Assembly (NCBI GenBank): GCA_963695545.1
Contig: OY968796.1
Location: 2,016,001-2,080,000 of the forward strand
Direction: 5' to 3'
DNA: 64,000 nt
Source of the DNA: Terriglobia bacterium
GTDB lineage: Bacteria > Acidobacteriota > Terriglobia > Acidiferrales > UBA7541
This document shows, piece by piece, positions 7,967 through 62,183 of this stretch. The notes under the pieces were generated by a model. It was not told the DNA's origin. It saw only the letters and a program-made list of their open reading frames with translations, and did not search any database. Position 1 is the stretch's first letter, and every line of letters begins with the position of its first letter. A program made the position numbers and the translations under genes.

Positions 7967-10933
7967 ATGTCGAAGGATTTGGTGATATCGGCGTCAGCGC
8001 ACGAAACGCGCGTCGCCATTTTGGAAGAAGGACAGCTTTGTGAAATCTACATCGAACGGGAAAAAGAATTTGCGTTAGTCGGAAGCATTTACAAAGGCCG
8101 CGTCACACGCGTGCTGCCCGGCATGCAGTCGGCTTTTGTGGACATCGGACTCGATAGCGACGCATTTCTTTATGTGAGCGATTTCCTCGAGAATCTCGAG
8201 GAGTACGATCACGTCGTTTCGACCGTCGAAAACAAAGTTGAAAAAATGCAGCAGCAGGGCGGCGAAGTTTTTTCGCAGCAAGCCGAAGCGCCTGCTGCGC
8301 CGGCTGGTGCGCCCGAAGCCGCCGCCGAGCCCGGCAATGAGCCGGCAGCCGAAGCGTCGCCGCGCGAATCCGGCGCGGAGCCGGCGTCGGATTCCGCTTC
8401 GGAATTCGCGAACGATCCACCGCAGCCGACCAGCAACGCCGGCAATTCGTTCAGCCAGGCGCCTGGCGCGCGGCCAGGATCTCGCGGCGGTTATCAGGAT
8501 AGGCAGGGCTCGCGCGGACCGGGTGGTCCCGGCGGCGGTCAAGGCGGCTCCGGCAGACCAGGCGGCCAAGGCGGTTCGGGCCGACCCGGTGGATACGGAG
8601 ATCGCGGCGGTTCAGGCGATCGCGGCGGACCGGGCGGCCGGCGCGGCCGCTGGGGACGCGGAGGCCGCGACGATCGGCGCCGCGGCGGTGGCGGGCGAGA
8701 TTTGCCTTCATCGAAATATGCGTCTCCTCGTTCATCCGACCAGGGATCTTCCGAGCGGCGGCCAAACGAATACCGGCCATCGCCGTCGCGGCCGTACGAA
8801 CCGCCGCCGGCCGATTACGTGCCGGTGATTTTGCCGGGCGAATCGCTGGCAAAATATAAGGATCGCATTCCGGGTCAGCCGCCAGCCGCGGCTCCCGCAG
8901 CGACGGAACCGTTGACGGACGCGCGGCTCGATCAAACAACGCCTGCCGCCGGGACGTTTTCCGACGTCGAACCGCCGCAGACGGTTTCCTCCGCGGCTGT
9001 CGAACCTCCTTCGGTCGCGCCCGACGAAATCGATTCGGCGAGCCTGCTCGAAGCGCATCGCGAATCGCCGGCGGAATCGCGCGACGCGGTTCAACCGTTG
9101 TTTGAGCCGCACGCGGCGCAAGATTCCGATCTCTCCGCGGACGAAGTGACTTCTCTTGCCGAGCAACTCGCCGAAGCCAAGCACGAAGAAGCGCAGGCCC
9201 AACGCGAAGAAGCGGCGCAAGACGCGCTCGACGCCTCGCAAGCCGAGCCGTTTTCCGAGAGCGAGAGCCACGAGCCGCCCGAGGGCCACTCGGAATTTGC
9301 CGGATTCGACGTGCACGACCGCGAACACGACGAGCACGGCGAAACCGATTCCGGAGCCGAGTCCGGCGCGGAGCACGAGAGCGAAGCCGGCGCCGAACAC
9401 GACGAAGCCGAACTGAGCGGCGCTTCCGAGCAACACGAACGCGACGAGCAGGAAGCCGAGCAGGCCCACGACGACGCCCACGCCGCGGCCGAAGGCGAAG
9501 CGCAATCCGCCGAAAATTTCGGCGAGCGCCAGCCGGACGCGGCCGCGATTCCCGATGCTCCCGGCTCCTCAAACTTTCCTTCATCGAGCGCACGGTTAAG
9601 CCAGCCGCCGCGCGCGCGTTTCCAGCGGCCCATGCGCCGCGGCGGGCGCAACAATCGCGACCGCGATCGCGGCGGACGCCCGCCGATGCGATCGCACGGC
9701 GGACCGCGCCACGACGCGCCGCGGCGGCCGCAACTGATTTCCGAAATGCTCAAGGCCGGCCAGGAAATCATCGTGCAGATCGCCAAGGAACCGCTCGGGA
9801 AAAAAGGCGCGCGCATCACGAGCCACGTCGCGCTGCCGGGGCGCTTCCTTGTCTACATGCCGACGGTGGACCACATCGGCGTTTCGCGGCGCATCGGCTC
9901 GGCCGAGGATCGCTCGCGTTTGCGGCGTTTGGTTTCCGAGGCCAAGGGCACGTTTCCCGGGGGCTTTATCGTGCGCACGGCAGCCGGCGGCGCAACCGAC
10001 GAAGAGATCCGCGCCGACGTGGAATTTCTGGGCCACACCTGGGACACGATTCGCACGAGTTCCGAGCAGCGCCACGCGCCGGCGCTGATGCATCGCGATC
10101 TGAATCTGGTGGAGCGCATCCTGCGCGATTATTTGAGCCAGGATTACGCCGCGATCTGGATCGACAACGAAGAGGAGTTCGGCAAAGTGGTGGAATTCGT
10201 GAACCGCTTCCAGCCGCGCCTGGTCGGCCGCGTGAAGCTCTACACCAAAGAGACGCCGATCTTCGAGGAATTCGGCATTCAGCAGGAACTCGATAAAGCG
10301 CTGCGTCCGAAAGTGTGGCTGAAATCCGGCGGCTACATCGTGATCAACCACACCGAAGCGCTGGTGGCCATCGACGTGAACACCGGCAAATATGTCGGCA
10401 AGGGCTCGACGCGCCTGGAAGACACGATCGTGAAGACCAACGTTGAGGCCGTAAAGGAAGTGGTGCGGCAAATCCGCCTGCGCGATCTGGGCGGAATCAT
10501 CGTGGTGGATTTCATCGACATGGAGGAGCGGCGCAACCGCGACCGCGTGATGGCCGCGCTCGAGCAAGCGCTGCACTCCGACCGCGCGCCGTCGAAGGTG
10601 ATCCCGTTCAACGAATTTGGCCTCGTGAACATCACGCGCAAGCGCACCAAGCAGGCGCTCGAGCGCGTGCTGTGCCAGCCGTGTCCGTATTGCTCGGGCA
10701 GCGGCATGGTGAAATCCGGGCCGACGATTTGCTACGAGATCCAGGCCGAAGCGCGCAAGATGGCCGAGAATCTCGATTCCGGCAGCATGACGCTGCGCGT
10801 GAATCCGGAAATCGCCAAGGCGCTCAAGACGCGCGAATCGAGCATGATCGAAGAGCTCGAACGCGTAACGAAAAAGAGCGTGATCATCCAAGCCGATCCC
10901 ACGCTGCATTGGGAGCAGTACGACATTTACTAA
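7967..10933 (+). CDS. rne: ribonuclease E/G family protein with a very long disordered insertion
   Basis: IYKGRVTRVLPGMQSAFVDIG, AIDVNTGK, LRDLGGIIVVDFIDM, CPYCSGSG; GAGGAG RBS before ATG 7967. Confidence 0.92.
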   Translation: MSKDLVISASAHETRVAILEEGQLCEIYIEREKEFALVGSIYKGRVTRVLPGMQSAFVDIGLDSDAFLYVSDFLENLEEYDHVVSTVENKVEKMQQQGGEVFSQQAEAPAAPAGAPEAAAEPGNEPAAEASPRESGAEPASDSASEFANDPPQPTSNAGNSFSQAPGARPGSRGGYQDRQGSRGPGGPGGGQGGSGRPGGQGGSGRPGGYGDRGGSGDRGGPGGRRGRWGRGGRDDRRRGGGGRDLPSSKYASPRSSDQGSSERRPNEYRPSPSRPYEPPPADYVPVILPGESLAKYKDRIPGQPPAAAPAATEPLTDARLDQTTPAAGTFSDVEPPQTVSSAAVEPPSVAPDEIDSASLLEAHRESPAESRDAVQPLFEPHAAQDSDLSADEVTSLAEQLAEAKHEEAQAQREEAAQDALDASQAEPFSESESHEPPEGHSEFAGFDVHDREHDEHGETDSGAESGAEHESEAGAEHDEAELSGASEQHERDEQEAEQAHDDAHAAAEGEAQSAENFGERQPDAAAIPDAPGSSNFPSSSARLSQPPRARFQRPMRRGGRNNRDRDRGGRPPMRSHGGPRHDAPRRPQLISEMLKAGQEIIVQIAKEPLGKKGARITSHVALPGRFLVYMPTVDHIGVSRRIGSAEDRSRLRRLVSEAKGTFPGGFIVRTAAGGATDEEIRADVEFLGHTWDTIRTSSEQRHAPALMHRDLNLVERILRDYLSQDYAAIWIDNEEEFGKVVEFVNRFQPRLVGRVKLYTKETPIFEEFGIQQELDKALRPKVWLKSGGYIVINHTEALVAIDVNTGKYVGKGSTRLEDTIVKTNVEAVKEVVRQIRLRDLGGIIVVDFIDMEERRNRDRVMAALEQALHSDRAPSKVIPFNEFGLVNITRKRTKQALERVLCQPCPYCSGSGMVKSGPTICYEIQAEARKMAENLDSGSMTLRVNPEIAKALKTRESSMIEELERVTKKSVIIQADPTLHWEQYDIY

Positions 10934-10968
10934 AAACCGCTTCGCAAACAGCACCATCGTGCATTTCG

Positions 10969-11007
10969 CGGCCTCAGGGGTTAACGCCCCTGAGGCCGTT
11001 GTGTTTT
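10969..11007 (+). terminator. intrinsic terminator after rne
   Basis: CGGCCTCAGGGG-ttaacg-CCCCTGAGGCCG hairpin followed by TTGTGTTTT. Confidence 0.75.
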
Positions 11008-11089
11008 GGGGAATCGTCCGGGACGCGAGAGCTCCTTTTCGCCCAGAGGTGAGCTGGCGACGCGGCCCAAACGTAGTGGATGGTCTTGA

Positions 11090-11492
11090 GGGGGTACACC
11101 CCCGGGTATGTTTTGCGTAAGAGCGGCAAACAAACGACTTCCAGGAAAAGAGTGACAAAGAGTGCGGAAGAGATTGAGAACAATAGACTTGCGATCGTTT
11201 ATTTTCAACGAGATGCGCACTGTTTTGGATGTCGCTGAAAATGAAAGAATTGGAGGGGTGGTTTGTTGCAGAAGAATGCGACTCGATCGAATTGTACCGA
11301 TGATATTTGGTAGGGCGCGCAAGCCGGGCGGAGGCAAGCTCCGCCCCTACATACGGAAAATTCGTCGCGCGGGCGAGCGGCAAGCGTGTGCGTCTCCAGC
11401 TCATGCGCGAGCATAACACTTCTGTAACCTATATGTCAATATAACTCATGGGGAATATTATTCGAATAGCTGTGGAAATTATTTCGAATAGT
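11090..11492 (-). repeat. dispersed intergenic element, copy A (homologous to 32500-33010)
   Basis: Colinear shared blocks AAAGAGTGCGGA, TTTCAAYGAGATGCGCACT, GCGCGGGCGAGCGGC, TGTCAA and TTCGAATAG. Confidence 0.85.
11310..11350. repeat. GTAG-family REP-like palindrome
   Basis: Minus strand reads GTAGGGGCGGAGCTTGCCTCCGCCC. Confidence 0.65.
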
Positions 11493-11519
11493 GGAAAACG
11501 CAAGAAGCAACCCGGACAT

Positions 11520-11562
11520 TCGAAATCCCCACCCTTTGCTGCGCAAAGGATGGGCCACCCCG
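11520..11562. repeat. REP-like palindrome
   Basis: CCCACCCTTTGCTGCGCAAAGGATGGG imperfect hairpin followed by CCACCC. Confidence 0.6.
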
Positions 11563-11683
11563 GGCTGCGCGAAGCGCAGCCCGACGGACGAGCTATGTTG
11601 CCTCGGGATGGAGATCGCCACCGGTCTGACCGATGGGTGCGGGTCAAAAAAAGGGGAAGCCCCAACTGAAGGGTGCGCCACCC

Positions 11684-11795
11684 GCCATTCTCTTGAGTTC
11701 TTCCAGCGTTTCGGCCTGCGTAAAATGGAATATCCCGGGGCGCGTGCTTCGTATCCGCCCTCCGGTGATTTCTCCACTGCGAAGATAATTTCCCC
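11684..11795 (-). pseudogene. HicB-like antitoxin fragment
   Basis: EIIFAVEKSPEGGYEARAPGYSI, then after a 1-nt frameshift TQAETLEELKRM; no start codon, truncated. Confidence 0.7.
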
Positions 11796-11862
11796 TTGGT
11801 CCGTGCCGAATTCCGACGCTGCATTGCTGAATGTTAGATTGCGAAGTCCGAACCGGCGGCCG

Positions 11863-32377: not shown

Positions 32378-32499
32378 GAACCGCTCCTCAATTGTTAAGT
32401 CCGGCCGTCATCGTATCATACCGGGCAGGCGAGTGCCGGAACGCGACGATTCCATGCGGATTGGCTGTTTTCTAGTGATCGGATACTGATGGCCGAGAC

Positions 32500-33010
32500 A
32501 GGGTATATATACCCCCGTACCAAAAACGTAAAATGATGATTGCAAAAGGTTTGCAGGGAAAGAGTGCGGATGAGTGTGAAAATAAATGTTTTGATATTGC
32601 GTTGTTTCAATGAGATGCGCACTCTTTTGTAATTGATTGAAAACAAATGGTTTGGAAGGGCGATTCGATGCAGGGAATTGCAGTTTTTGCGGAGGGATCC
32701 TTCGAGTCGCCCGACGCGCGGCTCGCCTGCCACGGCGGGCAGGCTCAGGACTCGAATGGTTGGAAGCAATGCGCTCCGCGCAGACCGGCGCCGGATGCTC
32801 AAGTCGTGGAGATTGCGACAAAGCGCCCTTCGCGGCGCGTTCTGCGGAGGCGATCGGAGCAGACGGGAACAGGTAGCGCGGGCGAGCGGCGTGCGTTGCC
32901 CGCAGTTTTGGCGGCGCAGGTGTGCGTTTCGAGGTCACACCCAAGGTTAGCACGAACAATACTATGCTGTCAACATATATCTATGGGGTATTCGAATAGG
33001 GCATTCGAAT
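32500..33010 (-). repeat. dispersed intergenic element, copy B (homologous to 11090-11492)
   Basis: Same blocks in the same order as copy A, with a longer variable middle. Confidence 0.85.
32763..32788 (+). repeat. 26-bp palindromic mini-element GAAGCAATGCGCTCCGCGCAGACCGG
   Basis: Identical to 52456-52481 and to the units at 61644-61751. Confidence 0.95.
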
Positions 33011-33091: not shown

Positions 33092-33475
33092 TCACCAATC
33101 GAGGCGACGGAGTCCGGAGACGAGATCGAAGTGCTTGTCTCGGCTGAGGAGAGGCAGCGAATGCTGGCGGCAGGCCGCAGCGATCCACAGATCATTGGAG
33201 GGAATCGGCTTGCCTTTCTTTTTCAGGTCCAGGGCGATGGCCGCGTAGGAGTGCGTGGTTTCTTCGTCGATCTCGAGCACGTCCACTGCGGAGATCCATT
33301 CGCGGAGCCAATCCTGGTAAAGCGCGCGGTGGCGGGACTGGGCGATTCCGAGGCGGTATTCGCCCAAGACAATCACGGGAACGGCCAGGCGGCCGGCGCG
33401 CTCGGCGACGTCCATTGCGGACGCTTGGCCGTCGGCAATCGCGGACAGCGCGTTGGTGTCCAAAATCAACGCCAC
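33092..33475 (-). CDS. vapC: VapC-family PIN toxin
   Basis: LILDTN, IPSNDLWIAA and LSRDKHF motifs. Confidence 0.93.
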   Translation of the reverse strand: MALILDTNALSAIADGQASAMDVAERAGRLAVPVIVLGEYRLGIAQSRHRALYQDWLREWISAVDVLEIDEETTHSYAAIALDLKKKGKPIPSNDLWIAAACRQHSLPLLSRDKHFDLVSGLRRLDW

Positions 33476-33711
33476 ATCTCCGGATCGATTTTCTCGGAAT
33501 CCTGATCGATCAGGCGGTTGATGCGGACAGTCTCCTTATGCAAACGTTTCAGTTTGCCCATAAGCTTCACCCAGGGTTTTCCGCCGGTGTTGGGCGCCAG
33601 TTTATCCTTCACCGCTTCGGTTACAAATTCACGGAGTGGAATCCCCCGTGAGGCCGCCGCCGATTTTGCGCGTCGAAAGACAGGATCGGGAATTTCCAAT
33701 GTGGTCTTCAT
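33466..33711 (-). CDS. vapB: VapB-like ribbon-helix-helix antitoxin
   Basis: MKTTLEIPDPVFRRAKSAAA; overlaps the vapC start. Confidence 0.85.
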   Translation of the reverse strand: MKTTLEIPDPVFRRAKSAAASRGIPLREFVTEAVKDKLAPNTGGKPWVKLMGKLKRLHKETVRINRLIDQDSEKIDPEMWR

Positions 33712-33719
33712 GAGGCTAT

Positions 33720-33746
33720 CCTCCCATATTTATGGGAGGGCGTCAA
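33720..33746 (-). promoter_or_regulatory. palindromic operator in the vapBC promoter
   Basis: CCTCCCATA-tt-TATGGGAGG just downstream of a TTGACG -35 box. Confidence 0.7.
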
Positions 33747-60830: not shown

Positions 60831-62183
60831 TTGATGCCCAGCCCGGCTGACCCACCCAACCCGCGCGTGCAGGCCGACGACGGCTTTCTTCAGTTACTCC
60901 TGGAGACCCTCGAAAGCCTGGAGAATCCCGCGCGCGCGCAATTCCTTCAGCGCTTTTTCAAAGCCATCGCTCAGGTTGAGTTGAGCGAATCGGTCAGTTC
61001 GGAATATTGGGAACGCATTCGCACGCGCATGCGAGAGACGAGCGAGATTCCGGGAAGTCCGGTTTCGTTCAAGCGCGCCATCATGGACGTGCTGATCAGT
61101 TCGGAATCGCTGCGCGTTCCGATTCTGATCGAATACGAGGAGCTCAAGAAATTACAGGTGAATGCCGCAACCGATCCGCTGACGGGTCTCTACAACCGGC
61201 GCCTGTTCGATGAATATTTCGACAAGGAACTGAATCGCTCCGCGCGCTACAACCACCGGCTTGGCCTGGTGGTTTTCGATATGCACGTTTTCAAGCAGAT
61301 CAACGACCGCTACGGCCATCCGCGCGGCGATCAATTGCTGCGCGCCGCGGCGCAAACGCTGCGCGAGTCGCTGCGAACTTCCGACTATGCGTTCCGAATC
61401 GGCGGAGACGAATTTGCGTTGCTGCTGCCCCAGACCGATGCCGAGCAAGCGCTCGCCCTCGCCCGGCGTCTGCGCGCCGCGTTCTCGGAGCAGATCGAGC
61501 CGATGCGCCTGGGCGTCGCGGTGGGTCTCGATTACGGCGTGGCAGTTTATCCCGAGGACGGCGGCCAGAAGGAATCGCTGCTGGGCGTCGCGGACGAACG
61601 TCTCTACCAGTGGAAGACCTATCGCCGCCCGGATCGGTCTGTTGAAGCAATGCGCTCCGCGCAGACCGGTGAAGCAATGCGCTCCGCGCAGACCGGTGAA
61701 GCAATGCGCTCCGCGCAGACCGGTGAAGCAATGCGCTCCGCGCAGACCGGTGAACCGACGCGCACGGCGCAGACCGGTGAAGCAACGCGCGCCAGACCGG
61801 CTGGAGACCAATCTACGGAACCGCCCGCGCCGCCGGCGGCGGCTTCAGCGGGGCGCAACGTACCCGCCGCGCCCGCGAAGCCCGTGGCGCCGCAAGATTC
61901 ACGCGAAACGATCGAAGAGCGCCGCAAATCGGAGCGCGTGGCGCTTTCCGGAACGACAGCCTATGCGCAATTGGCCGATGTGGCGGATCGCACTGCGCGC
62001 GTCGTGGATCTCAGCTCTGGTGGCGTCGCGCTCGAGATGGCGCGCCCCGAGGAGGTTGGCGCAACGTTCTCCGTCGTGCTGCACGTGCCCATTCTTCCTC
62101 CTGTGCGGGTGAGCCTGCGGCGAATCTATTTTCGCGCGGGGATTGGCGAAACGGCGCGGATCGGCTGCGCGTTCGTCACGTAG
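60831..62183 (+). CDS. diguanylate cyclase with C-terminal PilZ domain
   Basis: TDPLTGLYNRR, RTSD I-site, RIGGDEF; C-terminal RKSER and DLSSGG. Confidence 0.93.
   Translation: MMPSPADPPNPRVQADDGFLQLLLETLESLENPARAQFLQRFFKAIAQVELSESVSSEYWERIRTRMRETSEIPGSPVSFKRAIMDVLISSESLRVPILIEYEELKKLQVNAATDPLTGLYNRRLFDEYFDKELNRSARYNHRLGLVVFDMHVFKQINDRYGHPRGDQLLRAAAQTLRESLRTSDYAFRIGGDEFALLLPQTDAEQALALARRLRAAFSEQIEPMRLGVAVGLDYGVAVYPEDGGQKESLLGVADERLYQWKTYRRPDRSVEAMRSAQTGEAMRSAQTGEAMRSAQTGEAMRSAQTGEPTRTAQTGEATRARPAGDQSTEPPAPPAAASAGRNVPAAPAKPVAPQDSRETIEERRKSERVALSGTTAYAQLADVADRTARVVDLSSGGVALEMARPEEVGATFSVVLHVPILPPVRVSLRRIYFRAGIGETARIGCAFVT
61644..61800 (+). repeat. 27-bp in-frame tandem repeat (4 perfect and 2 degenerate units)
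   Basis: GAAGCAATGCGCTCCGCGCAGACCGGT x4, encoding EAMRSAQTG. Confidence 0.97.

Follow-up and report, generated by a model that had tools for sequence, protein, structure and literature searches.

Dispersed promoter-bearing cassettes in an Acidiferrales genome are candidate packaging start sites for a resident gene-transfer-agent-like cluster

The window analyzed here is a stretch of 64,000 nucleotides from a Terriglobia bacterium of the order Acidiferrales (contig OY968796.1, positions 2,016,001 to 2,080,000), whose genome (G000) is a single contig of 4.16 Mb with 60.6% GC. It contains two copies of an intergenic element, both on the minus strand, with the following features in window coordinates.

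11090-11489, minus strand: complete type A element (copy 1), with the rne/rng terminator on one side and a tonB-like gene on the other
11461-11489, minus strand: two TTCGAA boxes, predicted as sites for a regulator, on either side of a CTGTGGAAA motif and upstream of the -35
11410-11439, minus strand: copy 1 sigma-70-type promoter TTGACA-N18-TATGCT with an extended -10 TG, from promoter scans
9596-11404, minus strand: copy 1 leaderless ORF of 602 codons from ATG 11404, protein not conserved
11105-11275, minus strand: copy 1 AT-rich core of degenerate ~24-bp units (predicted protein-binding sites), with dyad arms at 11215-11225 and 11157-11167
11090-11108, minus strand: copy 1 terminal G-tract TACCCGGGGGTGTACCCCC, which forms the family's conserved 3' end
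32500-33010, minus strand: complete type A element (copy 2), preceded by a PIN-domain toxin gene and followed by a TPR gene
32991-33010, minus strand: copy 2 pair of TTCGAA boxes, from motif positions
32944-32973, minus strand: copy 2 promoter TTGACA-N18-TAACCT with an extended -10 TG, from a family-specific scan
32408-32938, minus strand: copy 2 leaderless ORF of 176 codons from GTG 32938, ending 30 nt before the TPR gene
32520-32690, minus strand: copy 2 AT-rich core of repeats, whose dyad arms lie at 32617-32627 and 32559-32569
32501-32520, minus strand: copy 2 terminal G-tract TACGGGGGTATATATACCC, from profile alignment of the ends

An earlier note on this DNA had described the pair as two diverged, colinear copies of a promoter-bearing element. 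The similarity is far beyond chance, the profile and promoter scans given below having no match in the reversed genome. In both copies AAAGAGTGCGGA (11157 and 32559) is followed 46 bp later by TTTCAAYGAGATGCGCACT (11203 and 32605), and then by GCGCGGGCGAGCGGC (11367 and 32876), GTGTGCGT (11386 and 32920), TGTCAA (11434 and 32968), ATGGGG (11448 and 32983) and a doubled TTCGAAT (11461 and 11483 in copy 1, 32991 and 33004 in copy 2), all at the positions first reported, as is the minus-strand promoter geometry of both copies. While the position of GCGCGGGCGAGCGGC is right, the motif occurs only 3 times in G000 and thus belongs to the variable part rather than to the family as a whole. What did not hold was the count of two: a core profile and a promoter matrix scanned over G000 together brought the number to 112, and the idea of a multi-copy, promoter-bearing element of no recognized family was borne out. 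The variable part of copy 2 also holds a separate repeat of ~27 bp (window 32763-32792), which is found in dozens of places in G000 and stands four in tandem with a 27-bp period near window 61644-61750.

The 112 copies in G000 comprise 90 of type A and 22 of type B. BLAST searches with both window copies returned dozens of matches in G000, an iterated core profile picked up 90 loci with scores over 30 bits but nothing in the reversed genome, and a promoter matrix found 105 sites, with none in the reversed control, and revealed the second core type. A plain consensus promoter scan listed copy 1 and missed copy 2 because TAACCT is too distant from TATAAT, while the family-specific scan picked it up. 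The identity of each copy to its nearest relative in G000 is 81% at the median and reaches at most 91%, so that the copies appear by sequence to be old or fast-changing. The cassette measures 0.2-0.7 kb, or ~1 kb when it carries a gene. Two further minus-strand loci, G000:C1:1205303 and 1310860, have the family promoter, a TTCGAA box and a leaderless start with no core within 300 nt; they are truncated copies, one of which precedes a small ribosomal-protein-like gene.

Outside G000, the promoter pattern is present in 5 of 5 same-genus genomes and in 8 of 36 genomes of the family, and 80 of the 114 stretches listed among named GTDB records belong to Acidobacteriota (Terriglobia/Acidiferrales). 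Because a generic end pattern was too strict (one of 61 genomes matched), we used an element-end model, R1, which found 4-86 copies in 20 of 36 family genomes, counts that are lower bounds since R1 scores at most 87 candidates per genome, and none in 15 genomes of the sister family. Among viral contigs, the core pattern had no match, the zinc-finger profile described below had no confirmed match, and the promoter pattern had 43 matches with no recognizable core among the matches listed.

Each copy has the same order of parts: a TTCGAA box, a sigma-70 promoter, a leaderless start codon, a GC-rich variable stretch, an AT-rich repeat core and a G-tract. TTCGAA lies within 60 nt upstream of the -35 in 95 of 102 strong promoters, with peaks at -20, -23 and -27, and is additionally found at +50 to +53 in 34 of the 102. 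The family promoter is TTGACA-N17/18-TG-TAnnnT with a freely varying spacer, and the start codon follows the -10 by 5 nt in 68 of 81 copies. Type B cores usually have three direct units of ~24 bp with a 39-bp period (35 of 40 gaps). Type A cores have units that look related to these by eye, and carry a dyad whose arms are 58-59 bp apart in 71 of 78 copies. A reading of the TTCGAA motif as a LexA box is not favored, since TTCGAA is absent upstream of both lexA and recA in G000. The lexA upstream region has a TTCGCC direct repeat, and the elements often begin with RTGTTCGCC, so that the two may partly overlap.

The frame that opens at the leaderless start codon is under evident constraint. It stays open to the end of the core in 94 of 100 copies, compared with 19 of 200 for the other frames. 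The values are 76 of 81 in type A (7 and 12 for the other two frames) and 18 of 19 in type B (0 and 0), and this selection upholds the leaderless start proposed in the earlier note. The leaderless small gene in the usual sense, also proposed there, fails: one fixed anchor in the type A core is crossed in two different frames (33 and 28 copies), so that the protein product is not conserved, and a conserved small protein was rejected on this ground. In copy 1 the frame runs through the core and continues antisense into rne/rng. The transcript strand has a C/G ratio of 1.76. From these sequence features we infer that selection is for being translated, probably against Rho termination, and not for the peptide.

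A same-strand gene lies downstream of 78 of the 112 elements. We classified 67 open leaderless ORFs with such a gene on home-made gene calls: the stop codon lies no more than 15 nt from the start of the gene in 22 (an ATGA overlap in 10 of these) and before that in 23, while 11 ORFs are fused in frame to the called gene and another 11 reach further into it.

The strong, conserved promoters would also suit elements that specify structured non-coding RNAs or short peptides, and type A cores indeed fold better than shuffled sequences (median z -2.2 in 22 copies), with the dyad spacing given above. However, type B cores have no such advantage over shuffled sequences (median z -0.15), and compensatory pairs are absent from the type A dyad, a test made weak by the near-invariance of that dyad. 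No curated Rfam model matched over the element at E<=1, the only gathering-score match in the window being one tRNA, and the use of two frames over the same core speaks against a peptide. An Rfam-type non-coding RNA was therefore rejected for want of a curated match or covarying structure, and the RNA option of the earlier note is weak. An RNA or a peptide would also leave the zinc-finger and tail links described below unexplained. We give this explanation very little credence.

The elements are regularly placed along the chromosome. In G000 their mean spacing is 37 kb with a coefficient of variation (CV) of 0.58, compared with 0.99 for random placement (0 of 5,000 trials) and 0.985 for placement restricted to random intergenic gaps (0 of 5,000). 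The 39 loci detected in the single-contig genome G015, where detection is possibly incomplete, are also regular (CV 0.69, p 0.009) at a mean of 114 kb. Since this mean differs from the 37 kb of G000, the spacing is not a fixed headful.

Evenly spaced sites opened by transcription might organize the chromosome or serve as back-up replication sites. Regular spacing and a G-tract where the transcript ends are in keeping with this, and 26 of the 130 genomic sites of TTTCCACA, which we take to resemble a DnaA box, fall inside elements where ~2 are expected. On the other hand, none of the 9 sites of the canonical TTATCCACA does, the elements show no replication strand bias in G000 (43 vs 47), their distribution is patchy within one family (20 of 36 genomes), and the tail match described below would remain without a role. 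We consider such a function most improbable.

The two flanks of the elements differ. Genes upstream of the elements are less host-like in codon use than those downstream (Wilcoxon p 5e-9), the upstream DNA of G000 elements is lower in GC and in coding density than the downstream DNA, and gaps of more than 500 nt number 29 upstream and 2 downstream. Foreign-looking DNA thus collects upstream of elements. In the window, the accessory DNA upstream of copy 2 (33092-33740) holds the PIN-domain toxin gene and a small upstream ORF, and that upstream of copy 1 (11500-11830) holds small hairpin repeats and a short ORF remnant.

Comparison with relatives, where orthologous sites are empty or hold other genes, showed that sites are occupied in some genomes and empty in others. 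The copy 1 site was read in 4 of the 5 same-genus genomes and has no element in any of these, and G003 has none directly after rne. The copy 2 site is occupied in G003 by an element of type B, equally placed and oriented, and G004, G002, G001 and G005 have none. Type B in G003 (L347) and type A in G000 at one site suggest replacement or repeated use of the site.

Such a pattern of occupancy could be produced by a non-autonomous mobile promoter moved by an unknown recombinase with target immunity, the link to packaging being a relic of phage origin. Target immunity, a property of Tn3, Tn7 and Mu, would yield regular spacing, and a promoter serving its neighbor would agree with the 78 elements that have a same-strand downstream gene and the 22 ORFs that stop within 15 nt of it, 10 of them with ATGA. 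The persistence of elements in 11 genomes without a match to the virion cluster described below also fits. Nevertheless, no near-identical copies are found (the maximum stays at 91%), and the element ends read show no terminal inverted repeats, as the earlier note had said. A MITE or IS end was rejected on the same two grounds. We regard the mobile promoter as an unlikely explanation, and return to it with the tail evidence.

Some elements carry a gene. A gene for a protein of 139-170 amino acids is found on 4 of the 112 elements, and all 4 of its homologs in G000 lie directly behind an element. In other genomes, 23 of 30 loci of this gene have an element end just upstream on the same strand, compared with 0 of 30 loci of the cluster small gene described below. 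The protein has the invariant residues C17, C27, C39 and H42, a C-C-C-H set which suggests a putative zinc finger, and the structure model has a helical hairpin (H70-85/H91-115, pLDDT 82-91). The protein had no match in Pfam, PHROG or NCBIfam, and fold searches and sequence searches of solved structures gave no clear match. The nearest named Atlas family is DUF5763 at 0.84, which is a lead only; relatives number 2,362 at 50% clustering. The zinc-finger genes on type B elements (L170; L179, L180, L183, L256 and others) are without the tail considered below, and have an extra helix and an acidic end. Distant homologs (L191-L197, family f3) have other upstream motifs, with direct repeats like AACCGCAAAAACCGCAGAAACCGTAGAC. 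The homolog L196 has a TTCGCTTATTATTCGCC box similar to the repeat that precedes lexA in G000, and this one lineage may be SOS-controlled.

G000 also has a virion cluster of ~35 kb on the minus strand (G000:C1:3384400-3419000; L207, L208) with host-like composition. It contains the only large-terminase gene (terL) of the genome, a portal candidate, a capsid gene, tail-like genes, a lytic transglycosylase gene and a replication-initiator-like gene; no element lies inside it. The capsid gene is present in 19 of 36 family genomes, one copy each, at 61-92% identity, and the cluster adjoins aspA in G000, G001 and G016 (two genera), the aspA adjacency matches in G008, G015 and G032 being 38-41% paralogs only. 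The single-copy capsid and the place next to aspA fit vertical inheritance, and the cluster is a candidate acidobacterial gene transfer agent (GTA) in its own right. The G000 cluster is damaged, with the portal candidate split into 698 and 93 amino acids and an IS3 in place of the scaffold candidate, and terL is frameshifted in G001 and G035. Acidobacterial prophages have been listed and, in the sections consulted, are not called GTAs (PMC5900883); the prophage clusters of that list may include this one.

The cluster has a small gene, which in G000 (3395093-3395368) is displaced downstream of the capsid gene, and which lies upstream of terL in 9 of 19 loci in relatives. Of 80 terL loci in a viral collection, 52 of them with enough upstream DNA, 22 have the small gene 200-500 nt upstream of terL, and none of the 80 has an element or a zinc-finger gene. 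The small protein has a short helical core with no evident DNA-binding domain. It had no sequence match in PHROG, Pfam or PDB and no clear fold match, and its Atlas neighbors are viral hypothetical proteins, Uroviricota clusters at 0.95 and DUF5681. Since neither this protein nor the zinc-finger protein matched a small-terminase (TerS) family or a phage record, the assignment draws on position, architecture and the tail, from which we infer a putative TerS without a DNA-binding domain. The small gene also has a second subfamily, with a tail like VQLVHNVPRPDR (L215, L217, L219, L221 and L223 in G017, G013, G039, G048 and G010). It occurs in genomes that gave no elements with model R1, where packaging may proceed without sites or with elements of other types.

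Elements and cluster only partly coincide. Among the 20 element-bearing family genomes, 9 have a capsid or terL match and 11 have neither, five of the latter being at least 95% complete; 11 family genomes have the cluster and no element match. For two of the genomes without a cluster, the small gene is present in congeners (in 7 of 20 and in 7 of 12), so that loss or assembly gaps are possible.

The zinc-finger protein and the cluster small protein share a C-terminal tail. In G000 the tail is EPVIWDMPGPDREQ in the cluster protein and GPVIWDMPGPDRER in the zinc-finger protein, and three of the four zinc-finger genes match the cluster protein there. Searching G000 with the cluster protein gave two zinc-finger tails as the next matches, and in a profile comparison the two families align over the tail only (probability 91%, E 9e-7). 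Near-identical tails are shared within a genome: PVIWDMPGPDRE in G000, VWDIPGPDP in G003, IEYQ(L/F)VSNVPRP in G032 and IDWTGIPRPD in G090. The own-genome tail score is 61.0 compared with 35.5 when shuffled (0 of 20,000 permutations) in the 14 genomes that remain after 16 of the 30 with a cluster small-gene locus were left out for a tail not parsed or fetched, and with G065 kept despite a mis-parsed cluster tail that lowers the score. Shuffled within genus the score is 52.5 (1 of 20,000); kinship contributes to the match, and the own-genome cluster protein ranks first in 8 of the 14 genomes. A tail was parsed in only 23 of the 77 zinc-finger proteins examined, 2 of them doubtful. Of the genomes dropped by the parser, the tails disagree by eye in G153 and G188, and match in G122 (VVWDIPM in both). 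Zinc-finger genes were likewise present in every one of 26 further genomes selected for having this small-gene subfamily, against a background of 19 of 36 family genomes.

The DNA differences between the two tails in G000 are mostly at synonymous sites. A mobile promoter that merely retained a relic of phage origin would not keep an own-genome tail match with such differences. The tail bears as well on an anti-phage explanation, in which invading phages of this lineage would have their terminase poisoned or diverted by the zinc-finger proteins, and the elements would act as decoy packaging sites through which host DNA fills the capsids. Elements and zinc-finger genes do occur where no resident cluster was found, and satellite proteins block helper packaging via TerS or TerL, as the excerpts consulted describe for Rpp (PMC6739421) and Gpi (PMC11417361). 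The tail, however, tracks the chromosomally fixed cluster protein of the same genome and not outside phages, and we hold the decoy to be quite unlikely.

Taken together, the evidence from sequence points to an option absent from the earlier note, a DNA-level site tied to a virion-packaging cluster. The element family is real and strongly selected, and its copy number, anatomy, open-frame selection, regular spacing, flank asymmetry, linkage to the zinc-finger gene and genome-matched tails are direct observations. On balance we favor, as the probable reading, that the 112 cassettes are pac-like packaging start sites for the GTA-like cluster and that the four zinc-finger genes encode predicted terminase adaptors. 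In this proposed mechanism, the cluster small gene would encode a TerS without a DNA-binding domain. The zinc finger would read the phased repeats of the core, the pac-like site, and the shared tail would bind TerL or co-assemble into the TerS ring, so that the zinc-finger protein would supply a sequence-specific head to the terminase of the cluster. Transcription, sustained by translation across the C-rich strand, would license the site and feed the downstream host gene, and packaging would run downstream from the element. We propose that downstream genes are thereby refreshed by recombination while upstream DNA gathers foreign genes.

A more far-reaching version is possible, though we hold it only tentatively: an undescribed GTA of Acidiferrales soil bacteria with non-random packaging, in which ~100 transcribed pac cassettes would be spread along the whole chromosome, exchangeable zinc-finger adaptors whose tail docks with the terminase would determine the cassette family in use, and the cassettes would be a new class of minimal element that spreads as the first DNA loaded into each particle.

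Parts of this arrangement are familiar from headful phages. TerS is described as having N-terminal DNA binding, central oligomerization and C-terminal TerL binding, and the suggestion is that its ring wraps ~100 bp, in the portions of PMC6854486 consulted. Like the pac and TerS of P22 and SPP1/SF6 in the same source, the cassettes have a promoter followed by a phased repeat array, and a gene with a putative N-terminal DNA-binding domain, central helices and a tail common to a terL-linked gene. Unlike them, the sites here are ~110 dispersed copies, 108 without the gene and none inside the virion cluster, and a zinc finger replaces the helix-turn-helix with no family or fold match to known TerS. 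RcGTA, as excerpted from that source, resembles our cluster as a single-copy, conserved, host-like head-tail-lysis cluster in a fixed place whose putative TerS is without the DNA-binding part; here, the candidate sites are scattered over the entire genome, and a replication-initiator-like gene is retained in the cluster.

Satellites hijack packaging in a comparable way. Rpp of E. coli PICIs joins the TerS ring (PMC6739421), and with the Gpi/Gps proteins and pac mimicry of Vibrio PLE (PMC11417361) and the TerS of SaPIs (PMC12829572), each as far as the excerpts go, it shares with the cassettes an element protein that here is predicted to redirect the terminase of another element. Downstream chromosomal DNA would also be packaged in both. 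The excerpt of PMC12829572 describes lateral transduction as packaging that proceeds downstream of a chromosomal site, which would fit the flank asymmetry of the elements. The cassette, by contrast, has no integrase, replication genes or att sites, holding a promoter, a core and at most one gene; it does not class as a PICI or satellite, G000 having 5 tyrosine-recombinase matches in total, and the cluster with which it is paired is inherited vertically, where satellites have a helper phage that infects the cell. The putative mobile promoters and the Correia, ERIC and REPIN repeats, as described in the part of PMC3575422 seen, are likewise dispersed intergenic repeats that place promoters before unrelated genes, but the copies here are ~80% alike, vary in promoter spacer, keep a translated unconserved ORF, stand at even intervals and have a link to a terminase-like gene. 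Our literature search on acidobacterial repeats, GTAs and terminases, mobile promoters and DUF5681, made mostly without subscription papers, found no description of the element or the cluster. Three findings are new here: the tail matched genome by genome, which links the cassette to one particular resident terminase cluster; the even spacing; and the result of the frame test. On our best reading by analogy, the cassette would act like a pac-TerS hijack module reduced to a dispersed unit.

Even if the packaging role fails, selection on ~100 promoters and open frames without a conserved protein is unusual, and the leaderless frames likely lie behind a number of 'hypothetical proteins' in acidobacterial annotations. 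GTAs are defined by packaging without discrete start sites, and none was known to use such sites as of 2019, according to the excerpted part of PMC6854486. If the packaging-site reading is true, the cassettes would represent a third mode between generalized and lateral transduction in an abundant soil phylum, and would account for the way in which conserved and foreign DNA alternate in directional patches on these chromosomes. Both a service to the host and a selfish hitch-hiker on the cluster are compatible with packaging sites; the question of who benefits from GTA-type packaging would become testable, because encapsidated reads should start at predictable coordinates.
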